Below are positions 4,046 through 32,713 of a stretch of DNA of 64,000 nucleotides, in pieces. Position 1 is the first letter of the stretch. The number at the start of each line of letters is the position of its first letter. The stretch is from a virus. The notes under the pieces are model-generated. The model was given only the letters and a program-made list of their open reading frames with translations, made no database searches and was not told the origin of the DNA. Where the stretch lies: IMG/VR virus record IMGVR_UViG_3300037346_000668, positions 1 through 64,000 of that record. One strand, given 5' to 3'. The position numbers and the translations under genes are program-made.

Positions 4046-5200
4046 TTAAAATAAAGCGTTAACCATAAATAGATTTGGACTTATCTGATTGTATCCCATT
4101 ACCTCAATGAACCTATTTATTGGATCAAGAATTGTTTTCGTGAATTGCTCATCATAGTCCAACGGGGGAGCAAATTCATAGGGAAATGTCCCCTGTGGGT
4201 AAGCAAAGATGTTACTATCATTAATATTTTTAGTTTTAACAAAATATAAATTTACTTTGTCACCCGCTCTGATAAGGGAATATTTTGTTTTATATGTTGA
4301 ATTATTTAAAAGGTAGTTATGATAGCCAGATGCTCTAACGTGTATAGGACATGCCTTAGCAACTTCAAATCCGGTAGTATCATTTAATATCTTATCATAA
4401 TTATTAATATTTATTGATGCGGATATGTTTTGTGGCTCCTGTAATTTGAATTCCCTCTTTATTGATTTTAATTCCTTCACAAATTCCCTTATGTCAAAGG
4501 CCCTACCTTTAGTAAAAATAAGCTTCGTTAGATATACCAATTTTTCTCTAACAAAAGGAGGTGTTCCGCCCTTTATCATCTCAACTCCGGTAAATTTAAG
4601 TTGGGTCAGAGGTTCCATATGTAGTCCTGAATCGTAAACGAGATTTGCTACATATTTTTTCTTTCCAAGAAATATAGCATTTATAGCAAGTGTTTCTAGC
4701 TCAAAATCCTGATAGTTTTCGGTTCCCCATTTTTTTGAATAGATATCAAAGCATTTTCTAAGATAATCATTTAATCTATATTCGTTTATTTTTATGATGA
4801 GATCCTTGGCATCCCCTGCATAATCGCAGGAGTCAACAACTTCCTGAAAAGTAACATAATTAGAATCGGTATCACCATAAACAACCAGAGGATTAGTTAC
4901 CCTTTTAACGTGTTTCAATCCTAGCTTCTCATGAAGCTCTGTGTCGAGATGCCAATGTTCATGAAAATATTTATGCAATATCTTCTCAGAATATTTAATA
5001 AGATCCTGACCCTGCAGAGTTACTGCTTCAGCAACATCCGGGTTGAAGCAAACAAAGTAGTTATTTCCGATAGCTCCATAGATAGAGTTCATTGTTAATT
5101 TTACTGCTTGCTCCTCATTCTTATATTCATTCTTAAGAGCGGTAAGTCTCTCTATTTTTTCTTCAATCCCTTTAATTTCTTCCTGTGTCATTAATATCAT
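4046..5200 (-). CDS. gp43B: Family B DNA polymerase, C-terminal half (gp43B-like)
   Basis: Motif B KLTMNSIYG, motif C YGDTDS, KKKY, GVE; C-terminal hydrophobic clamp-binding-like tail MVNALF; lacks exonuclease and motif A. Confidence 0.92.
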   Translation of the reverse strand: MILMTQEEIKGIEEKIERLTALKNEYKNEEQAVKLTMNSIYGAIGNNYFVCFNPDVAEAVTLQGQDLIKYSEKILHKYFHEHWHLDTELHEKLGLKHVKRVTNPLVVYGDTDSNYVTFQEVVDSCDYAGDAKDLIIKINEYRLNDYLRKCFDIYSKKWGTENYQDFELETLAINAIFLGKKKYVANLVYDSGLHMEPLTQLKFTGVEMIKGGTPPFVREKLVYLTKLIFTKGRAFDIREFVKELKSIKREFKLQEPQNISASININNYDKILNDTTGFEVAKACPIHVRASGYHNYLLNNSTYKTKYSLIRAGDKVNLYFVKTKNINDSNIFAYPQGTFPYEFAPPLDYDEQFTKTILDPINRFIEVMGYNQISPNLFMVNALF

Positions 5201-21256: not shown

Positions 21257-22663
21257 TTAATTTTTCTCTTTCTGTAATACCTTTTTCAAACCATCTATTT
21301 CTAGCTCCAATTCAAGCATTTTATCCTTGGTTTTTCTTCTTCTTGCATACAGATCCTTAATTATTATCTTAAGTATTGGGTTTTCATCATCATTACCAAA
21401 ATAAGCTCCAGATGCACACTTAATCCAATTTTCCTTGGGGTTCAGTAGATTCTTTCCCTTATATGATTCAGGGGAAATCCCCCACTGAACCATTGCGTTA
21501 GGATACAGAGAAGCAAAATCATAACATGCTACCCAACCATGTAGACCCTTTATGGGATCCTTAACATACCCACCAGCAAATTTGACATGTACTTCCTCCT
21601 TTCTCTCCGCAGTAAGAACCTGTTTTCTATCTAGAAATTTCTTCATCATAAGAACTTCTGTTGACCAAACGGGTGAAAGACATCTGTTTATTTCAACACC
21701 AGATATCATGGCAATCTTGAAGAAGGTTTGCATAGTTTTAAGCTTTTGATCTATATAGTGAACAAGAGCACAATCGACAGCATTATAATAGATAAAATCT
21801 TCGAAGTTGGATTGATATAAATCTCTAAGAGTTCCGTCGTAAGCAATCTTTTTAAACCCAACAGCTTTATCAGCAACATAATCAAGTCTATTACTTTCCT
21901 TAATCTTTATAACCCGATCCCACTTTTTATAAATCTCCAAGTAATCAAACATTAATAAATGTTGAGGTAATTGGCCTTTACCAATCAGTGTTCTTCCTGG
22001 AGATATAATTTTGGGATCTATACCAAGTCTTTTAGCCCTATTCAGGAGATATGGCCAGTCGTATCCTAACCAGTTCCATCCAGTCATTGTTGCCATTTTC
22101 GGGCCAAGTTCACGGAAGAAAGTGTACATCATATCATATTCGGTTTCGAATTGCTTATACTTAAAGCTCCACTCATCACCGGTTTTTTCGAAGTATTTGT
22201 TTATCTTATTAAATATACTTCCCTGCTGTTCTGGAGTTAGTGGATCTAAACCAAGAATCAATAATTTTCTTTTGTCCGTACCAATCCCTATGGATAGTAC
22301 ACGGTTTTTTGCATTTTCTGTATCAAGTGATGCAGCCTTATCCTCAGTTATCTCAACCTCTATATCGACAAAGTATTTCTTTGGCTCCTGGTACTCCCAT
22401 AATGGCTTTGTTAATTCATCAGGAGCTTCCATTAAAATCTGAGCCATTCTATATTTGTCATATCTCTCGGATTTTACTTTCTTAACAGGTTCTCCCTTCC
22501 AGTTTGTCCATTCTTTATCCCTCTTAGGATCTCCTGGGTTGCACCTTTCCCAATTGAATCTTTCGCTCTCCAGTATGGGCACATGTAGAAATGCAAGTTC
22601 TCCCTCAGGACCAAAGTGAGATACGTTTAAGTAGCTTCCCTTATTCTCTATATCAATAATCAT
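21257..22663 (-). CDS. gp43A: Family B DNA polymerase, N-terminal half (exonuclease + motif A; gp43A-like)
   Basis: ExoI DIE, ExoII GWNWLGYDWPYL, ExoIII YNAVD, GGYV, motif A DFASLYP, ISPE; ends in first fingers helix. Confidence 0.92.
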   Translation of the reverse strand: MIIDIENKGSYLNVSHFGPEGELAFLHVPILESERFNWERCNPGDPKRDKEWTNWKGEPVKKVKSERYDKYRMAQILMEAPDELTKPLWEYQEPKKYFVDIEVEITEDKAASLDTENAKNRVLSIGIGTDKRKLLILGLDPLTPEQQGSIFNKINKYFEKTGDEWSFKYKQFETEYDMMYTFFRELGPKMATMTGWNWLGYDWPYLLNRAKRLGIDPKIISPGRTLIGKGQLPQHLLMFDYLEIYKKWDRVIKIKESNRLDYVADKAVGFKKIAYDGTLRDLYQSNFEDFIYYNAVDCALVHYIDQKLKTMQTFFKIAMISGVEINRCLSPVWSTEVLMMKKFLDRKQVLTAERKEEVHVKFAGGYVKDPIKGLHGWVACYDFASLYPNAMVQWGISPESYKGKNLLNPKENWIKCASGAYFGNDDENPILKIIIKDLYARRRKTKDKMLELELEIDGLKKVLQKEKN

Positions 22664-26807: not shown

Positions 26808-26987
26808 TTATGCTGTTTTGTTCTTAGAGTCCTGAACATCCGTTCTTACTTCCTGAGCAAGAGCTTTCAATTCCTGCATAGCTTTTCTAACTCTTGTACC
26901 AGCTGCACTGTTACCTTTACTAAAGAATTTTTCAGCATCACCTTGTGTTTGCTCTAATAGAGCCTTAATTTGTTCGAATTTTTCCAT
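26808..26987 (-). CDS. Histone H1-like (Hc1-family) small protein; absent from the ORF track
   Basis: Translated by hand: MEKFEQIKALLEQTQGDAEKFFSKGNSAAGTRVRKAMQELKALAQEVRTDVQDSKNKTA (59 aa); KGNxAAGTRxRK signature. Confidence 0.85.
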   Translation of the reverse strand: MEKFEQIKALLEQTQGDAEKFFSKGNSAAGTRVRKAMQELKALAQEVRTDVQDSKNKTA

Positions 26988-27010
26988 TTTAAATTTAATT
27001 TTAATTTATT

Positions 27011-27038
27011 ATTATATCAACGATTTTTAAAAAAGTTC
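27011..27038 (-). promoter_or_regulatory. Putative middle promoter GAACT-N17-TATAAT
   Basis: Upstream of the Hc1-like gene. Confidence 0.5.
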
Positions 27039-27040
27039 CC

Positions 27041-27586
27041 TTATCTGCTTATAATTAATGATTTTTCATCCGTACCGTTCTGGACTGCCCAATTTTTACC
27101 AAGTTCTGATATACAAATAGACTTCATATATTCTATATATTCACCCTTTCCTTTATATTCAAGATTGTCCTGGAGCTCGTCATATATTCTTATCACCTTT
27201 GGATTAAGGGAAAGATAATCGAGCACACATCTGAATATGTATTCCATTAAGCGGGAAAGCTCGTTACCATCAACCAGGAATTTACTTTCATCAGGAGATG
27301 GTATATCCTCTTTATTAATAGCGATATCCTCTATAACCTCGTGACCTATTTGATTTATATTAAGTACACAATATGAATTTTTGGCTCCCTCTATAGCTTC
27401 ATTCTCAGAATACTTCCCTATTATAAGATGGTATCCCATTTCTTCCTCCCCGTCCTCGCTATCCAATGTGAAAAAATAATGATGAACATCACTAACTTTC
27501 TTCATTAAAAAGGACGAAGTCCCAAATCCATCATTTTCATTTATCGGATTAGTAAATTGCTCAAATGATTCAATAAACTTTTTCAT
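27041..27586 (-). CDS. Hypothetical protein with capsid-targeting-like N-terminus
   Basis: 181 aa; MKKFIESFEQFTNPINE. Confidence 0.65.
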   Translation of the reverse strand: MKKFIESFEQFTNPINENDGFGTSSFLMKKVSDVHHYFFTLDSEDGEEEMGYHLIIGKYSENEAIEGAKNSYCVLNINQIGHEVIEDIAINKEDIPSPDESKFLVDGNELSRLMEYIFRCVLDYLSLNPKVIRIYDELQDNLEYKGKGEYIEYMKSICISELGKNWAVQNGTDEKSLIISR

Positions 27587-27587
27587 T

Positions 27588-29627
27588 CTATTCTTGATTA
27601 TTTTTTTCTATATTCTGAAAAATTTCACATTCGGCTATAAGATCAGAATCTACAAAAGTAAGATCTTGATTCTCTTTAATACCTGTTCCTCTCTGTGAAT
27701 CTATCAATGAATTATAAACATTTGCAACCGCTTGTGGCACAAGTTTTTTAAATCCAGTATAGTCTTCAGAATCTATTTTTTTCCTAATGTCACTTCCACT
27801 GGAAGATCTCTTAGTTTGAATTATTTTTATATCATCAGGAAAATCCCCTCCTGCTTTCTTAAGGTATTCAACTTGCTTATTATAATCCTCTATCCTATCA
27901 TCACCAGCACCTATTACTTTAGGAAGAAATCCATATTCCTTAGCCTTTCCGTAAATAGGACCAAGTAATCCCCGATTAACTATAAAATAACCAGATATTT
28001 TACCAGGATTATCTCTAACTATTCCTTCCATATATCTCGATATTAATTTTTCATCATATGGTGATTTGCCAGATTTGTTATGTCCATGATGGACAACAGC
28101 TATTATGCTAGGAAGATCGTTTTCCTTATATAATTGATCAACCATCTTAAGGTGGCCATTATGGAAAGGCTGGAATCTACCAACTAATAAATTAACAGGC
28201 TCCAATTTTTTTACGTCATCGGAAGAGTCCTCTTTTATTTCCTTTGTCTTATCTTTCTTTGTGGTATCTATAGTTTCTAATGTTGATATAAACTCATTAT
28301 AGGAATAGAACGGATCGTCAACATCATCAGAGGTGTCATCCAAATTTTCGGATTCAACTGTAACATAATCTATTTTCTTCGAGGATATATTACTTTTCTT
28401 AAAATCCATGAAAGATGGGATAGATTCGGATTCTTGTATAGCTGGCTTAATCTCCTTGGCAACAACACCCTCTATATCACTTACCACTATATTAAATTGA
28501 TCTATTATACCAGCAGTTATTATTCCGCTAGCTCTTTTTCTTATTTTTCTAAATGAGTTAAGCATAAGCTTAAAAAGTGATTCATAAGAATCATCGGTAT
28601 CCAAATACTTAAGTACTCTTTTATCCTTTATCATGTTCAAATTCAATCTGAACTCATCCTTTTTTAAATAATCAGGTTCCTGAAAATCAGCACCTCTATA
28701 TTTATATGCGTATTCTCCAAGGAATTTAACAAAAACGTCGGACATGAAGGAGATATATCTTTCATCGTCGCTATCACCGGCAACGTTAAATGACTCAACA
28801 CCTTCCTCGAGAATATAATTCATTATATCCATTATAGTTAGACCCAGAAAATCGCTAGGCTTTTCCTCAGATCTTTTACTATATTTCTCCTTGGCCATCT
28901 CAGTAAAAACTGGATCAACCATTTTGGATAATATTGGTTCCTTACCATTATCTTCCTCACCAAATCTAAAAACTATTCCTTCTATCGGCTTATCAAGGTC
29001 ATTGTTAAGTGCACTTGTTTTTGAGGAAGGATTAAGAACACCTATTATGTACCTAACAAAGCTCTTTGTCTTATACTCAGCAACCAGCTGATCGAATGGT
29101 GTTCTTAGAAAATCCAATATTTGATTCTTCTGATCATCAGTTAGCATGCCCTGAAATACTATAGGTGGTCTTTCGACACCCAGAAGATCCGCCCAATTAT
29201 TTAATTGTTCCTGATCCTGTATTGTTGATGAGGGGCTTCCGTTTTCGTTCTTTGTATGGATATATGATAATATTAGATTATTCTTAGGTAATCTATCATA
29301 AGCAATCTCAACCGGTTGGTTGTTTGAAAAATACTCAAGACCAAATCTCCAACCCCTAGGTATATCATTAAGAATATGTGGTGGGAGTGACTCTATATAG
29401 TTTATCGGCTTTTCGTAATATTTCATAAGAGTACGATCAACAAGAGTTATTGGGTATCTTTGATCTCTTTTATAAAAATTAAATCTACCAGTTTCAGGGT
29501 CTCTTTCAAAAACAAAAGCAGAGCCATCCATTTTTTCATTAATGGTCACATAAGAGTTAAAGAGATTATCAATAAAATCTTTACCTTTTTTGTTATAAAT
29601 ATCATATAAATGACTAATTCCTGCCAT
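27588..29627 (-). CDS. Fusion: Rnl2-like ligase/adenylyltransferase domain + HxGH (NMNAT/cytidylyltransferase-like) domain
   Basis: Ligase motifs I EKMDG, III GLEYF, IV EGIVFR, V KMVDPVFTE; acidic linker; GRFQPFHNGH, GDDR, SSGSDIRK. Confidence 0.75.
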   Translation of the reverse strand: MAGISHLYDIYNKKGKDFIDNLFNSYVTINEKMDGSAFVFERDPETGRFNFYKRDQRYPITLVDRTLMKYYEKPINYIESLPPHILNDIPRGWRFGLEYFSNNQPVEIAYDRLPKNNLILSYIHTKNENGSPSSTIQDQEQLNNWADLLGVERPPIVFQGMLTDDQKNQILDFLRTPFDQLVAEYKTKSFVRYIIGVLNPSSKTSALNNDLDKPIEGIVFRFGEEDNGKEPILSKMVDPVFTEMAKEKYSKRSEEKPSDFLGLTIMDIMNYILEEGVESFNVAGDSDDERYISFMSDVFVKFLGEYAYKYRGADFQEPDYLKKDEFRLNLNMIKDKRVLKYLDTDDSYESLFKLMLNSFRKIRKRASGIITAGIIDQFNIVVSDIEGVVAKEIKPAIQESESIPSFMDFKKSNISSKKIDYVTVESENLDDTSDDVDDPFYSYNEFISTLETIDTTKKDKTKEIKEDSSDDVKKLEPVNLLVGRFQPFHNGHLKMVDQLYKENDLPSIIAVVHHGHNKSGKSPYDEKLISRYMEGIVRDNPGKISGYFIVNRGLLGPIYGKAKEYGFLPKVIGAGDDRIEDYNKQVEYLKKAGGDFPDDIKIIQTKRSSSGSDIRKKIDSEDYTGFKKLVPQAVANVYNSLIDSQRGTGIKENQDLTFVDSDLIAECEIFQNIEKNNQE

Positions 29628-29650
29628 AAGTAGCTTTTTTTTAATGTTTA

Positions 29651-30583
29651 TTATTGTATTCTATTAATCTCAGTAGGTATTTCTAGTCCAACCCTTTGCA
29701 AAAATTCCAAAAATCTTTCCTTTATTTCTGGTAACTTATCACTTAATTCGAAATCTGACGACATTATTACAGAAAACAGTTGTTCAAAGGTTTTAACATC
29801 GTCTATATTATAACCAGGGCCTAGTGCAAAATTAATAAATTCCTGAGGATTATTAGTAACAAATCTCTCACTTCCTTCTATTTTTTTAGGATTTTTCAAT
29901 CTATCTTTGATTTTTCCCCTGTATGATTTTGTATGCCAATATAAACCATCACTTAAAATAAGGACTGGTGTATTATAATCTAATACCTCGCCTGTATCAC
30001 CAAGCTCAATTATTTCCTTTCTTGAAGATAATATGGCTGCTAATAGCCAATTTCTATGAGCTGATTTATATTTGCTTTCCCTTATTTTGTAATTTGGTGA
30101 ATAGTATATAAAATCTGCCCATTTCATATCTGATAGAGGTATAAGATCAAGCTGAACTATACCTTTATCTATATTACCATCTATTGGCCACCCAATACTA
30201 ACTATATTAAGTCCCTTCAAATAATTTATTTCAGGTCGGAACCCTATAATATCACCAAGATCATTTTTTATCTTATCGTATATAAATCCAGAGCATTCCT
30301 TCATTGTTATGCCATTAGTGTCAGAATACCATTTAGCATCATAGCCAATATCAAGATCACCAGAGGTATCATCAGGATTTTCTTTTTTTCCTATACTTCC
30401 TATTATCACATATTGATCATTGATTCTCGATTGATCTATACCAAGAATCGGAAAAAGCTTTTCTTTTATCGATAATAGGGTTCCTGGAAATTCATCCTCA
30501 CGTATTCGTCTAGATGTTTTTATTGCGGATCCTCCCTCAAACAAGGCTTTAAAATTAGAAAAATTAAGGATACCATTACCCAT
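29651..30583 (-). CDS. Pol-beta superfamily nucleotidyltransferase with capsid-targeting-like N-terminus
   Basis: IGSIGKK...SGDLDI...VQLDL catalytic triad; N-terminal ILNFSNFKALFEGG. Confidence 0.75.
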   Translation of the reverse strand: MGNGILNFSNFKALFEGGSAIKTSRRIREDEFPGTLLSIKEKLFPILGIDQSRINDQYVIIGSIGKKENPDDTSGDLDIGYDAKWYSDTNGITMKECSGFIYDKIKNDLGDIIGFRPEINYLKGLNIVSIGWPIDGNIDKGIVQLDLIPLSDMKWADFIYYSPNYKIRESKYKSAHRNWLLAAILSSRKEIIELGDTGEVLDYNTPVLILSDGLYWHTKSYRGKIKDRLKNPKKIEGSERFVTNNPQEFINFALGPGYNIDDVKTFEQLFSVIMSSDFELSDKLPEIKERFLEFLQRVGLEIPTEINRIQ

Positions 30584-31134
30584 TATGCTCTCTTTTTTGT
30601 TTTTTTATAGTAGGTACCCATTATATCTTTAAGATAATCCCTATAAATTTCTTGCTCCTTATCCTTAGGGTTCTGTGGGGTAAAATCATCACCGAAGTAT
30701 TTTTTACCTCTAAGGACACCCGATTTATAAAATTCCTCAGCATCACCATCAGTAACTCTTCTATTTTCTATATGCTCACCCTCCCACTTTTTGATTATCT
30801 CATCTTTTCTTCTCTTTATCTCTTCCTTATCAAGATCCTTCCACGATTTAGTTTCTTCGCCTGGCGAAAGAAAATCTATAAAAGCAGCAGCTCCCTTAGT
30901 AAGTCCCTTAACTGCTAAACCTATAACGCTAGAAGCACTCTTTATGGTTGACATATTAGGGTCAGCGTCTGTATAATAACTACTATATCCGCCGTCTCCA
31001 ATACCTATATTATTTCCTATTCTTCTAAGCCATCTCGAGAATGAAGTTTTACCCTCCGCTTCGAGATAGTCAGAATTGCGATAGGATTCCTGAATTTTAT
31101 AATTATTAAATTCATCAAAAGATTTTATTGTCAT
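30583..31134 (-). CDS. Hypothetical protein with capsid-targeting-like N-terminus
   Basis: 183 aa; MTIKSFDEFNNYKIQES; GATATATA at 31153-31160; amphipathic segment VIGLAVKGLTKGAAAFIDFL. Confidence 0.65.
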   Translation of the reverse strand: MTIKSFDEFNNYKIQESYRNSDYLEAEGKTSFSRWLRRIGNNIGIGDGGYSSYYTDADPNMSTIKSASSVIGLAVKGLTKGAAAFIDFLSPGEETKSWKDLDKEEIKRRKDEIIKKWEGEHIENRRVTDGDAEEFYKSGVLRGKKYFGDDFTPQNPKDKEQEIYRDYLKDIMGTYYKKTKKRA

Positions 31135-31171
31135 TAGTCGAAAATGTTTTTCTATATATCCTTAATATAAA

Positions 31172-32713
31172 TTAAAGTTTAACGCTATATATTTTATATT
31201 CGAATCCTTCCTTCTTATAAATCTCTATCCTCTCGATGCTATGTTTTGCCAAATAGCTTTTATATTTTTTGGTACTGAAGTCATCAACAAAATCTATAAC
31301 ATTAACCTTCTCCTTACCTTCCATCTTACGCATACCCCTACCCAAACTTTGTTTTATTAAAATCTCACTCTTGTAGGATTCAACAAGAAATATATTATGC
31401 AAATTGTTTATTGATATACCAGTTGAGAATGTTCCGTATGTCGCAATTAGAACCTTATTAGAGCCAATCGACATTCTTCTCTTATATTCCTCTCTTAATG
31501 CCTCACTAGTGTCACCATCAACATAAAACACCTCTCTATCGCCATTTAATTCTCTCAAAAGGTTCCATATCTGTTTACCATATTCCTCTTTAACAGACTG
31601 GAATAAGACAAGTGAATTTTTTGAGGTTTTGTTTATAAAATCAGTAACATAGTTTAATCTTTTTTTGCTTTCTATAACTAGCTTTCTCTCAAGATTGTAT
31701 ATCTCGTTACCTTCCACGTTATTATCACTTAATTTAAGATCAGCTAGTTTTTCCTTATATATAGGATCAAGCCAATCCATAGTAACGACCTTTATAGAAA
31801 CAGGTGTAGCATATCCATTATCGAAAAGAAAACTAGGGGGTATCTCCATAACAAGGGGGCCAAGAAATTGCTGTATAGTTAAATAATCTGCAGTTCCTCT
31901 TTTAGTTAATGTTCCTGTTAATCCAAATCTCCATTTAGAGTGCATACATTGGGCAACTATCTTTTTTATCGATGTGCTATTAGTGTGATGTGCTTCATCT
32001 ATAAATACACAATCCACTTCCTCGAAAAAATCAGATTCTCTTTTAACCAAAGATTGGTATGTGCCTATTATTATATCACACCCATCCTTTATTTTACTTC
32101 CCCCTCCAATTTGCTGTATCTTAACACCATCAAGTTTATCAAGTCCATACTCCTCAAAATCATCATTACCCTGAAATACAAGATTGGAATTAGGAACGAT
32201 CATAAGTATCTTTCTTACCATCCCCCTTGATTTTAAATAAGCAAATATCATAAACGATATGAGGGTTTTGCCTGATGAAGTTGCAACCTCAGAAACAGAA
32301 TATCTATATCTTAGTATCTTCCATGCTGTTTCTATCTGATAATCCCTAGGCATCTTGTCAGGATTTCCTCCTATACCTCCTTCGAAAAATTCATTAACCC
32401 ACACAGTAAACTCGTCTAATTTAACATCATCAGTTATGACTTCATTTAGGCCTTCTATATTAATATCAATTTTATACTTTTCACCTATATCTAGTAGCTC
32501 TCGCCAGAGACCTATTGGTACCTTCCAAAATCCACCTCTCTTCTCTATAAAACATATAGATCCATCCCAGATTTTTTTCTTCACGAGAGGATGGAAAAAA
32601 TGATTATGTATCTTCTGTGTCAAAGAAATTTCAACTTGTTTTTTCTCCACCTCGTCGGCTGCTTCTAATAAAAGCATCCACTGTTGGTCGTCAGTTACTC
32701 TAAATTTTAACAT
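31172..32713 (-). CDS. uvsW: UvsW SF2 helicase
   Basis: WDGSI, PRDYQ, ATSSGKT, DEAH, GLTGT, FSTGISI, QSLGRGMR. Confidence 0.93.
   Translation of the reverse strand: MLKFRVTDDQQWMLLLEAADEVEKKQVEISLTQKIHNHFFHPLVKKKIWDGSICFIEKRGGFWKVPIGLWRELLDIGEKYKIDINIEGLNEVITDDVKLDEFTVWVNEFFEGGIGGNPDKMPRDYQIETAWKILRYRYSVSEVATSSGKTLISFMIFAYLKSRGMVRKILMIVPNSNLVFQGNDDFEEYGLDKLDGVKIQQIGGGSKIKDGCDIIIGTYQSLVKRESDFFEEVDCVFIDEAHHTNSTSIKKIVAQCMHSKWRFGLTGTLTKRGTADYLTIQQFLGPLVMEIPPSFLFDNGYATPVSIKVVTMDWLDPIYKEKLADLKLSDNNVEGNEIYNLERKLVIESKKRLNYVTDFINKTSKNSLVLFQSVKEEYGKQIWNLLRELNGDREVFYVDGDTSEALREEYKRRMSIGSNKVLIATYGTFSTGISINNLHNIFLVESYKSEILIKQSLGRGMRKMEGKEKVNVIDFVDDFSTKKYKSYLAKHSIERIEIYKKEGFEYKIYSVKL

Follow-up and report, generated by a model that had tools for sequence, protein, structure and literature searches.

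A leader-tagged Pol X-like enzyme beside an RNA ligase-HIGH fusion: a candidate phage kit for nucleic-acid end repair and NAD+ rebuilding

Why would a phage keep, in one tight row of genes, a polymerase-like nucleotidyltransferase, an RNA-ligase-like domain fused to a HIGH-motif nucleotidyltransferase and two small proteins without a recognisable family? The question is raised by a four-gene cassette in the first 64 kb of the 82.9-kb IMG/VR record IMGVR_UViG_3300037346_000668, whose completeness is ~30%; this whole stretch of 64,000 nt, with a G+C content of 33%, is called the window here. We take the source to be an uncultured jumbo phage, because related contigs run up to 320-435 kb and carry terminal repeats. 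A DNA similarity search with the cassette gave no match among GenBank phages. In gene order the cassette encodes proteins of 183, 310, 679 and 181 aa; the first two genes overlap by 1 nt, and gaps of 23 nt and 1 nt follow (Table 1). A preliminary description of this DNA had proposed a tight operon of these genes, with a Pol-beta nucleotidyltransferase in second place, and four minus-strand open reading frames (ORFs) are indeed present in that arrangement.

The answer we favour, with a probability of roughly 0.55, is that the cassette is a late, partly virion-loaded fill-and-seal kit for nucleic-acid ends, joined to NAD+ rebuilding. A promoter-like element, GATATATA, would drive late transcription of all four genes. 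Leaders on the 183-, 310- and 181-aa proteins would dock these into the prohead core, a protease of the T4 gp21 type would remove the leaders after hydrophobic-x-Glu, and the enzymes would exit the capsid with the DNA into the next host. The Pol X-like 310-aa enzyme would then extend or fill 3'-OH ends, possibly with ribonucleotides, and the Rnl2-like domain of the 679-aa protein would seal the 3'-OH/5'-phosphate nick, using ATP via Lys32. The HIGH domain of the same protein would turn nicotinamide mononucleotide (NMN) and ATP into NAD+, with NMN supplied by a NadV-like enzyme such as complete relatives encode, and the rebuilt NAD+ would offset NAD+-depleting defences. As the substrate we lean slightly toward RNA (cleaved tRNA or other) rather than nicked or gapped phage DNA, by analogy with the RNA-repair enzyme RlaP and from the type of the ligase and the fusions of the family to CCA-adding, kinase and HD domains.

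The 310-aa protein has no match in Pfam, PHROGs or NCBIfam, and PDB sequence searches with the protein and with its family profile gave no meaningful match. The family is nevertheless large, with at least 492 representative clusters, defined at 50% identity, in an exhaustive HMMER search (306 of them at E <= 1e-10). Among 60 family members, G62-S63, D76-x-D78 and D146 are all at least 90% conserved, and G75, beside D76-x-D78, is also near-invariant; the protein thereby holds the hG[GS]-x9-13-Dh[DE]h motif and the third carboxylate of the Pol-beta superfamily. Its AlphaFold2 (AF2) model has a predicted local distance difference test (pLDDT) score of 94.7, with low confidence in residues 1-20. 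Using Foldseek, we retrieved Pol-beta superfamily chains only. The VIA search, which is independent of Foldseek, placed Pol X of African swine fever virus (ASFV) first (Z 9.3, root mean square deviation (rmsd) 3.6, 164/176 residues aligned), followed by the Pol beta palm-thumb, terminal deoxynucleotidyltransferase, Leishmania Pol beta, Thermus Pol X and Pol lambda (Z 8.7-9.2, model residues 21-267). RNA-specific terminal transferases, CD-NTases and MenT align with the palm only (Z <= 8.0, ~100 residues), whereas the model has a Pol X-type thumb after the palm. The 8-kDa and fingers (helix-hairpin-helix) domains are missing from the model, in which ~20 flexible residues precede the palm; ASFV Pol X is likewise without both. 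The DNA_pol_B_palm profile matched 4 of the 60 members, with a best E of 0.009 and all under its cut-off. On the predicted structure, the 310-aa protein is a minimal Pol X-like palm and thumb of the Pol-beta superfamily, so that the Pol-beta fold first proposed is upheld and narrowed to the minimal Pol X type.

RlaP (PF10127) itself was considered and rejected as an identity for this family, as 0 of 60 members match its model at E up to 1. The same model matches none of the 5 complete related genomes, while control genomes match. Members of the 310-aa family are, however, fused or adjacent to RNA ligase genes, a context feature that resembles RlaP. As a separate observation, the metagenomic family member P0254 (589 aa) is fused to a region matching Druantia DruA (PF14236, E 3e-9), which oddly connects a phage cargo enzyme with a protein of a defence system.

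The fold of the 310-aa protein also bears on a rival explanation, in which the cassette repairs DNA: the Pol X-like enzyme would travel with the genome and fill gaps in phage DNA, and the Rnl2-like ligase would seal the nicks, perhaps ribonucleotide-ended, as patch repair of the base-excision or non-homologous end-joining kind tied to replication. We hold this possible, though somewhat unlikely. T4 Rnl2 is able to seal duplex nicks, and the best fold matches of the 310-aa protein are DNA polymerases X, aligned through palm and thumb with Z 8.7-9.3 over 164-180 residues, as opposed to the palm-only alignments of RNA-specific terminal transferases at Z 7-8 or lower. The genomic setting points the same way. 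The cassette lies within a replication module (primase, UvsW-like helicase, single-stranded DNA-binding protein), the corresponding ligase-like and family-member pairs of Agrobacterium phage Atu_ph07 and Sinorhizobium phage Phosso also stand beside primase and helicase genes, and a 129-aa HhH-GPD glycosylase-like protein is encoded 3 kb away, downstream. Fill-and-seal by a Pol X and a ligase has been characterised for ASFV and for PgVPolX (PMC5537341). What speaks against DNA as the substrate comes from the partner protein and from the tRNA-specific CCA-adding enzyme among the fusions of the 310-aa family.

In the N-terminal part of the 679-aa protein, ligase motifs I (K32-M-D-G), III (E98), IV (E216-G217) and V (K235) are present. 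Using VIA, the ligase domain was matched best by T4 Rnl2 (1s68, Z 11.5, 195 residues aligned), then by Rnl5, Trl1 and REL1 (Z 10.5-10.7) and Rnl1 (Z 10.1), and Foldseek matched it to T4 Rnl2 at E 2.8e-7. RNA ligases (Z 10-11.5) are thus closer in fold than DNA ligases (Z 7-9), and the ligase part has no predicted OB domain. Moreover, a canonical DNA ligase (PF01068) is encoded elsewhere in all 5 complete relatives, which likewise counts against the DNA-repair explanation and for which reason the 679-aa protein was rejected as the replicative DNA ligase. The resemblance to T4 Rnl2 (gp24.1) extends over the four motifs and may include the predicted helical domain after the core, for which Foldseek alignments to full-length Rnl2 span 351-374 columns with high rmsd. 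It differs from T4 Rnl2 in its ~13% identity, in an extra 285-residue linker and HIGH domain, and in its Pfam RNA_ligase (PF09414) score of 24.7 bits, under the 27-bit cut-off (orthologues 18-26 bits). A ligase and helical unit without the HIGH domain occurs in megaphage records.

The linker that follows has a pLDDT below 50 save for two short helices (406-413 and 441-451), and F406, F409 and F446 are invariant in 20 orthologues while the rest of it varies. In the HIGH domain, the motif GRFQPFHNGH occupies residues 483-492, and the second motif, SxxxR, is SSGSDIRK near residue 610, aligned to 1ej2. That PDB entry, an archaeal NMN adenylyltransferase (NMNAT), matches residues 479-641 at E 1e-3, and a profile search returned MJ0541 and NadM at E 2e-4. 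All significant sequence matches are archaeal or NadM-type NMN adenylyltransferases, and by sequence the domain is closest to these enzymes. The NCBIfam models that match best are NMNAT models (TIGR01527, 28 bits against a cut-off of 181; NF002243, 35 against 127), and only the generic TIGR00125 domain clears its cut-off. The Rnl2-like ligase and HxGH nucleotidyltransferase folds proposed in the preliminary description are thus borne out by the VIA, Foldseek, PDB and profile searches, and every catalytic motif that it had called intact is present and conserved.

A supply of NMN is suggested by the complete relatives: a NadV-like phosphoribosyltransferase is encoded in 4 of 5, not adjacent to the 679-aa gene, and the one orthologue scored reached 561 bits to NF006629. 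The 679-aa orthologue is the sole HIGH nucleotidyltransferase in 3 of 5. A NadV with a lone HIGH nucleotidyltransferase agrees with a rule from the literature, by which the NadM-type enzymes of phages come with NadV (PMC9503650), and with the NARP2 pathway, which consists of NadV and NMNAT (10.1101/2024.02.11.579819). What the cassette has in common with NARP2 is a HIGH-family, NMNAT-like domain together with a NadV-like enzyme in complete relatives of the phage. The domain differs in that its fusion partner is an RNA ligase and not a Nudix or kinase domain, in the distance of NadV, and in scoring far under the NMNAT equivalog cut-offs. NAD+ for 2'-phosphate removal of the KptA/Tpt1 type was rejected as a purpose, as no KptA/Tpt1 was found in the 5 complete relatives.

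Evidence for loading into the head comes from the leaders. On the 183-, 310- and 181-aa proteins, aromatic-x-x-aromatic is followed after a few residues by hydrophobic-x-Glu. Leaders of this form occur on 12 of the 70 genes of the record, against ~2 expected (P 6e-7), and 3 of the 12 are in the cassette. They hold the elements of the T4 capsid targeting sequence (CTS) with a spacing 2-5 residues longer, and are 16-17 residues long. The T4 internal proteins IPII and IPIII start with MKTYQEFIAE; in the T4 CTS, capsid targeting depends on residues 4 and 7 and processing on residues 8 and 10, and the gp21 cut falls after L/I-x-E (PMC9026906). In an alignment of 183-aa orthologues the leader is the best conserved part. 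The 183-aa protein has no Pfam, PHROG or ESM Atlas match, and the 181-aa protein no family or ESM Atlas match. Within the 310-aa family, 13 members carry the exact 10-residue T4 pattern followed by GG, and 21 members begin with MGG and have no leader; where domains of the 310-aa type lie inside polyproteins of 400-1800 residues, hydrophobic-x-E followed by GG still precedes them. The leader and EGG junction of the 310-aa protein are strongly conserved yet flexible and of low confidence in the model, which is the look of a linear targeting-and-cleavage motif. A gp21-type prohead protease (PF03420) scores over its cut-off in 5 of 5 complete relatives.

A cultured phage provides a more direct view. 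Atu_ph07 (490 kb) encodes a member of the 310-aa family, AUZ94877, directly after an RNA-ligase-like protein, AUZ94878 (EKLDGS; Pfam RNA_ligase E 2e-3; hhalign to the ligase profile E 7e-4). The published virion proteome of this phage contains gp65, of 32.16 kDa, with 10 unique peptides and 36.8% coverage (PMC6102473, Table S5). The computed mass of AUZ94877 is 32.16 kDa, and the masses of its neighbours agree with gp58-gp64, gp67-gp69 and gp72 to two decimals, which identifies gp65 as the Pol X-like AUZ94877. The presence of this enzyme in Atu_ph07 virions, and of the leader here, would also suit a host-directed effector, that is, a packaged nucleotidyltransferase that modifies host RNA 3' ends in the manner of MenT and shuts off translation; MenT1 and terminal uridylyltransferases are among the palm matches (Z 6.5-8). 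The thumb is of the Pol X type, however, and its neighbours and fusion partners (ligases, a kinase, an HD domain and a CCA-adding enzyme) suit repair better than damage; we consider an effector highly improbable.

Several other genes with leaders were noted. The same CTS-like leader is present on a RimK-like ATP-grasp enzyme of 491 aa, which has GATATATA 20 nt upstream, and on an adenylate kinase of 222 aa, whose ADK domain begins at residue 34. Should the tag signify loading into the head, metabolic enzymes such as these would be among the cargo. At 44.9-52 kb, Atu_ph07 encodes tandem 29-31-kDa paralogues that start with M(R/K)WxQLxE, a second CTS-like leader type that was read in gp58-gp62, and gp55-gp64, all but one of ~30 kDa, are in its published virion proteome. 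In a 294-kb phage (L098:309-6915, L099:692-8473), at least 8 consecutive genes begin with MKNIPTFE(D/E)FxNE or a close variant, and one gene begins with ..KKLPTYEEFIAEA, near-identical to the T4 CTS.

The GATATATA element in front of the 183-aa gene is not enriched by raw count in the window (13 observed, 10.4 expected), and its placement is far from random. In the 83-kb record, 14 of 17 copies fall within non-coding DNA, which makes up 3.8% (P ~8e-18), and these 14 lie 7-62 nt upstream of a start on the same strand. The genes behind it include tail-fibre-like, baseplate and other structural genes as well as many leader-tagged genes. Upstream of the 183-aa orthologue it is kept in 46 of 50 distinct related loci, with a diverged spacer around it. 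Because its placement is non-random and it is kept while the spacer diverged, we regard GATATATA as a real promoter-like element, probably of the late, T4-type class that has a -10 element only. The label 'late', also used in the preliminary description, follows from its being shared with tail-fibre and baseplate genes and is likely by association. Scans for sigma-70 promoter and terminator consensus sequences stayed at chance level.

In one riverine metatranscriptome, contigs of a ~93% identical relative span 27150-31204, with coverage of all four genes, and bridge the 181/679 and 679/310 gene junctions; they attest presence in an RNA library, to which DNA carry-over may contribute. No contig of this library lies on the helicase gene or on 26922-27132, which we do not take as a transcript boundary.

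Is the cassette a functional unit at all? Its block is syntenic in at least 67 of 79 IMG/VR loci, and the 181-aa gene is found in 73 of 79. In most of the 79 loci, however, primase, helicase, cassette and the downstream genes for an Hc1-type histone H1-like protein and a DUF4494-like protein are all collinear, so adjacency alone says little. Four unrelated genes might simply have been kept together by regional synteny, with the presence or absence of the 310-aa gene reflecting one or two events in the tree. We consider this very improbable, because enzymes of the same types are adjacent or fused in distant lineages with other gene orders. The 310-aa family is fused with RNA_ligase in P0325, with HIGH nucleotidyltransferases in P0244 (together with Nudix), P0256, P0294, P0306, P0308, P0331, P0381 and P0285, and with both a HIGH nucleotidyltransferase and a CCA-adding enzyme in P0295 and P0327, the former of which also has an AAA_33 kinase and an HD domain. 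A hidden Markov model of the ligase domain gave no match to the fusion proteins of the 310-aa family, and the DUF6267 part of P0285 did not align to the ligase profile. Phosso has the same pair of ligase-like gene and family member as Atu_ph07, and the 294-kb phage carries a tagged stand-alone HIGH nucleotidyltransferase (E 1e-26 to the HIGH domain here) 3 kb from a tagged family member. Lak-B2 has a family member with no recognisable ligase or HIGH neighbour within 7 kb.

Within the clade, the preliminary description had asked whether the genes co-occur; they stay together, with the 310-aa gene kept in 63 of 64 loci with intact motifs, and they recur in unrelated phages and fusions. Conversely, ligase and HIGH motifs are intact in every one of the 63 loci with the 310-aa gene, and ligase K32, E98, E216-G217 and K235 are kept in all loci save the L064-L072 lineage. 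Two lineages, which form the two basal long branches, are without the 310-aa gene: L057-L059 has a dead HIGH motif (GKFQPFDNLD), and in L064-L072 the ligase residues Lys32 and E98 and the EG of motif IV are gone, and HNGH has become NNGH. Reading the co-loss as strong covariation was rejected, as it amounts to one or two tree events, and the link between loss of the 310-aa gene and motif decay is suggestive only. From their sequences, the orthologues in both lineages look like pseudo-enzymes kept for another role. T4 Rnl1 (gp63), for comparison, doubles as a tail-fibre attachment factor. A diverged homologue of the 310-aa protein in the L064-type loci was also rejected, since hhalign found the 276-aa ORF there to be unrelated. 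As further observations, L032, L043, L044, L051, L062 and L064-L072 hold an extra gene of ~135-150 aa between the position of the 310-aa gene and the 679-aa gene (~4550-5000), and in the related locus L022:5001-7568 the 679- and 181-aa genes form a single ORF of 855 aa, which is either a true fusion that would place the 181-aa leader at a domain border inside the protein, or an artefact of assembly.

Another explanation, the second option of the preliminary description, is a nucleotide relay, in which the HIGH domain would not be a housekeeping NMNAT. It would instead serve the ligase or the Pol X-like enzyme by making or using an adenylylated donor, such as NAD+ formed locally for an NAD+-using ligase, AppN, or end adenylylation. 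In line with it, at least 9 architectures join a HIGH to a Pol X-like domain, the two are encoded as neighbours in an unrelated phage, the HIGH motifs are degenerate in both lineages without the 310-aa gene, the NMNAT equivalog cut-offs are missed, and PgVPolX is a precedent for a Pol X-ligase pair able to run on NAD+ (PMC5537341). Yet every significant sequence match of the HIGH domain is an NMNAT, NadV occurs in 4 of 5 relatives, and the domain is the sole NMNAT candidate in 3 of 5 genomes; the motif decay may be a single evolutionary event, and fusion may mean co-delivery instead of a shared pathway, as argued for polyvalent proteins (PMC5512222). We judge the relay improbable. A broader form, which we hold to be quite unlikely, is that the mini Pol X-like family is loaded in heads and acts in one complex with the Rnl2-like ligase and the HIGH nucleotidyltransferase. 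HIGH activity would then be coupled to end repair as a virion-delivered nucleotide relay rather than as one of two separate counter-defences, with the HIGH domain making, for example, NAD+ or another adenylylated donor on site for sealing or end-tagging.

Returning to the fill-and-seal kit with NAD+ rebuilding, we found a number of points that weigh against it. The 679-aa fusion has no N-terminal leader, and no canonical L/I-x-E cleavage site was found directly after its linker motifs PSFMDF and YNEFIS. The ligase-like gp66 (38.04 kDa) is missing from the virion list of Atu_ph07 (PMC6102473). Because the fusion is untagged and gp66 is not in that list, the word 'kit' may overstate co-delivery; the injected module of the preliminary description is thus supported for the Pol X-like enzyme, by its CTS-like leader and by gp65 in virions, and not for the ligase-HIGH fusion. 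In addition, gp65 starts with MGG and has no leader, yet is found in virions, so the tag is not the sole route into the head, nor a proven loading signal. The HIGH domain misses the NMNAT equivalog cut-offs by far, and complete relatives also encode a canonical Rnl2 and a ligase-kinase locus besides their DNA ligase, so that one more ligase is not an evident need. Within the clade, a good part of the co-occurrence is simple synteny, reflecting one or two evolutionary events. Finally, full-length 679-aa orthologues persist with dead motifs, which suggests a further, non-catalytic role of this protein.

Compared with known systems, the cassette combines familiar themes in an unfamiliar way. Repair by an RNA ligase paired with a Pol-beta nucleotidyltransferase, RlaP, has been described (PMC7824862, PMC12776372): damaged RNA 3' ends receive one or two nucleotides from RlaP and are then sealed, and RlaP is widespread among jumbo phages. 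The likeness lies in a Pol-beta superfamily nucleotidyltransferase encoded beside an RNA ligase; the 310-aa family differs from RlaP in being unmatched by its model, in its thumb-bearing Pol X-like fold, in its CTS-like leader and in a ligase partner that is fused to a HIGH nucleotidyltransferase. ASFV Pol X with the ASFV ligase, and PgVPolX of Phaeocystis globosa virus, provide minimal palm-and-thumb Pol X enzymes that work with or are fused to a ligase, and in PgVPolX the Pol X-ligase pair is linked to NAD+ (PMC5537341). These are DNA base-excision enzymes of eukaryotic viruses with ligases of the DNA-ligase type, whereas the cassette ligase is of the Rnl2 type, NAD+ enters the cassette only through the NMNAT-like domain, and the polymerase-like protein is probably virion cargo. 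The cassette resembles T4 IPI-III and Alt, which are injected with the DNA (PMC9026906), in the elements of its leaders (two aromatics three apart, then L/I-x-E at a longer spacing), in the gp21-type protease of relatives and in a probable late-type promoter. Its leaders have 16-17 residues against 10 in T4 and are candidate cleavage substrates, and its cargo would be nucleic-acid enzymes instead of small basic proteins or an ADP-ribosyltransferase.

The statement in the preliminary description that no characterised pathway has this combination is accordingly half true, since the RlaP-ligase (PMC7824862, PMC12776372), Pol X-ligase (PMC5537341) and NARP2 pairings are known. The Pol X-like family, the RNA ligase-NMNAT fusion and such enzymes as CTS cargo are undescribed in PMC7824862, PMC9503650, PMC5512222 and PMC12776372. 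The themes of ligase with Pol-beta, Pol X with ligase, NadV with NMNAT and CTS packaging are thus known, and this family, the fusion and the tagging add new variations on them.

If the favoured reading is true, many jumbo phages and megaphages inject nucleic-acid enzymes besides DNA and small internal proteins; the 310-aa family includes Lak phages and Atu_ph07. T4-type capsid targeting would then have a wider range of cargo than is known so far, and many phage proteins now listed as 'hypothetical' could be assigned a function. RNA or DNA end repair would be tied to NAD+ rebuilding, each of which is a theme in how phages counter host defences. Direct tests are within reach, since the cultured Atu_ph07 holds the polymerase-like protein in its virion, with its gene beside the ligase-like gene. 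Both the minimal Pol X-like enzyme and the fusion of ligase and NMNAT-like domain might find use as reagents.

Table 1. Genes, leaders, protein domains and other features of the window (leaders are listed under the coordinates of the gene that carries them)
Feature	Position (nt)	Strand	Basis or remark
GATATATA promoter-like element	31153-31160	(-)	19 nt before ATG of 183-aa gene
183-aa gene	30583-31134	(-)	ORF call; CTS-like leader
183-aa leader, MTIKSFDEFNNYKIQE then S	30583-31134	(-)	F6, F9 invariant; E16 >=90% (orthologue alignment)
310-aa gene	29651-30583	(-)	ORF call; minimal Pol X-like nucleotidyltransferase (predicted), CTS-like leader
310-aa leader, ..NFSNFKALFE then GG	29651-30583	(-)	Conserved EGG junction
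679-aa gene	27588-29627	(-)	ORF call; RNA-ligase-like and HIGH nucleotidyltransferase fusion
RNA-ligase-type adenylyltransferase domain, residues 1-255	28863-29627	(-)	KMDG, E98, EG216-217, K235
Helical domain after ligase core, residues 256-393	28449-28862	(-)	AF2 helices at 259-390
Disordered acidic linker, residues 394-470	28218-28448	(-)	pLDDT <50; aromatic motifs PSFMDF, YNEFIS
HIGH nucleotidyltransferase, residues 471-650	27678-28217	(-)	Pfam CTP_transf_like over cut-off
181-aa gene	27041-27586	(-)	ORF call; CTS-like leader
181-aa leader, MKKFIESFEQFTNPINE then ND	27041-27586	(-)	F11, E17 invariant (orthologue alignment)
Hc1-type histone H1-like protein, 59 aa	26808-26987	(-)	Pfam E 4e-25
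HhH-GPD glycosylase-like protein, 129 aa	24004-24393	(-)	
468-aa ORF	21257-22663	(-)	Part of DNA polymerase PHROG profiles
Adenylate kinase, 222 aa	16495-17163	(-)	CTS-like leader
RimK-like ATP-grasp enzyme, 491 aa	1991-3466	(-)	CTS-like leader

Around the cassette, the T4-type genes of the window comprise those for primase, a UvsW-like helicase, a gp32-like single-stranded DNA-binding protein, ribonucleotide reductase, topoisomerase II, DNA polymerase and tail-fibre-like proteins; no tRNA genes were found in the window. The Hc1-type gene lies directly downstream of the cassette. The 468-aa ORF matches part of the DNA polymerase PHROG profiles only, as would be expected if the polymerase gene were split. 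In the riverine RNA library, a contig at 26500-26816, mainly on the DUF4494-like gene downstream of the Hc1 gene, has a depth of 143, compared with 5-9 over the cassette.

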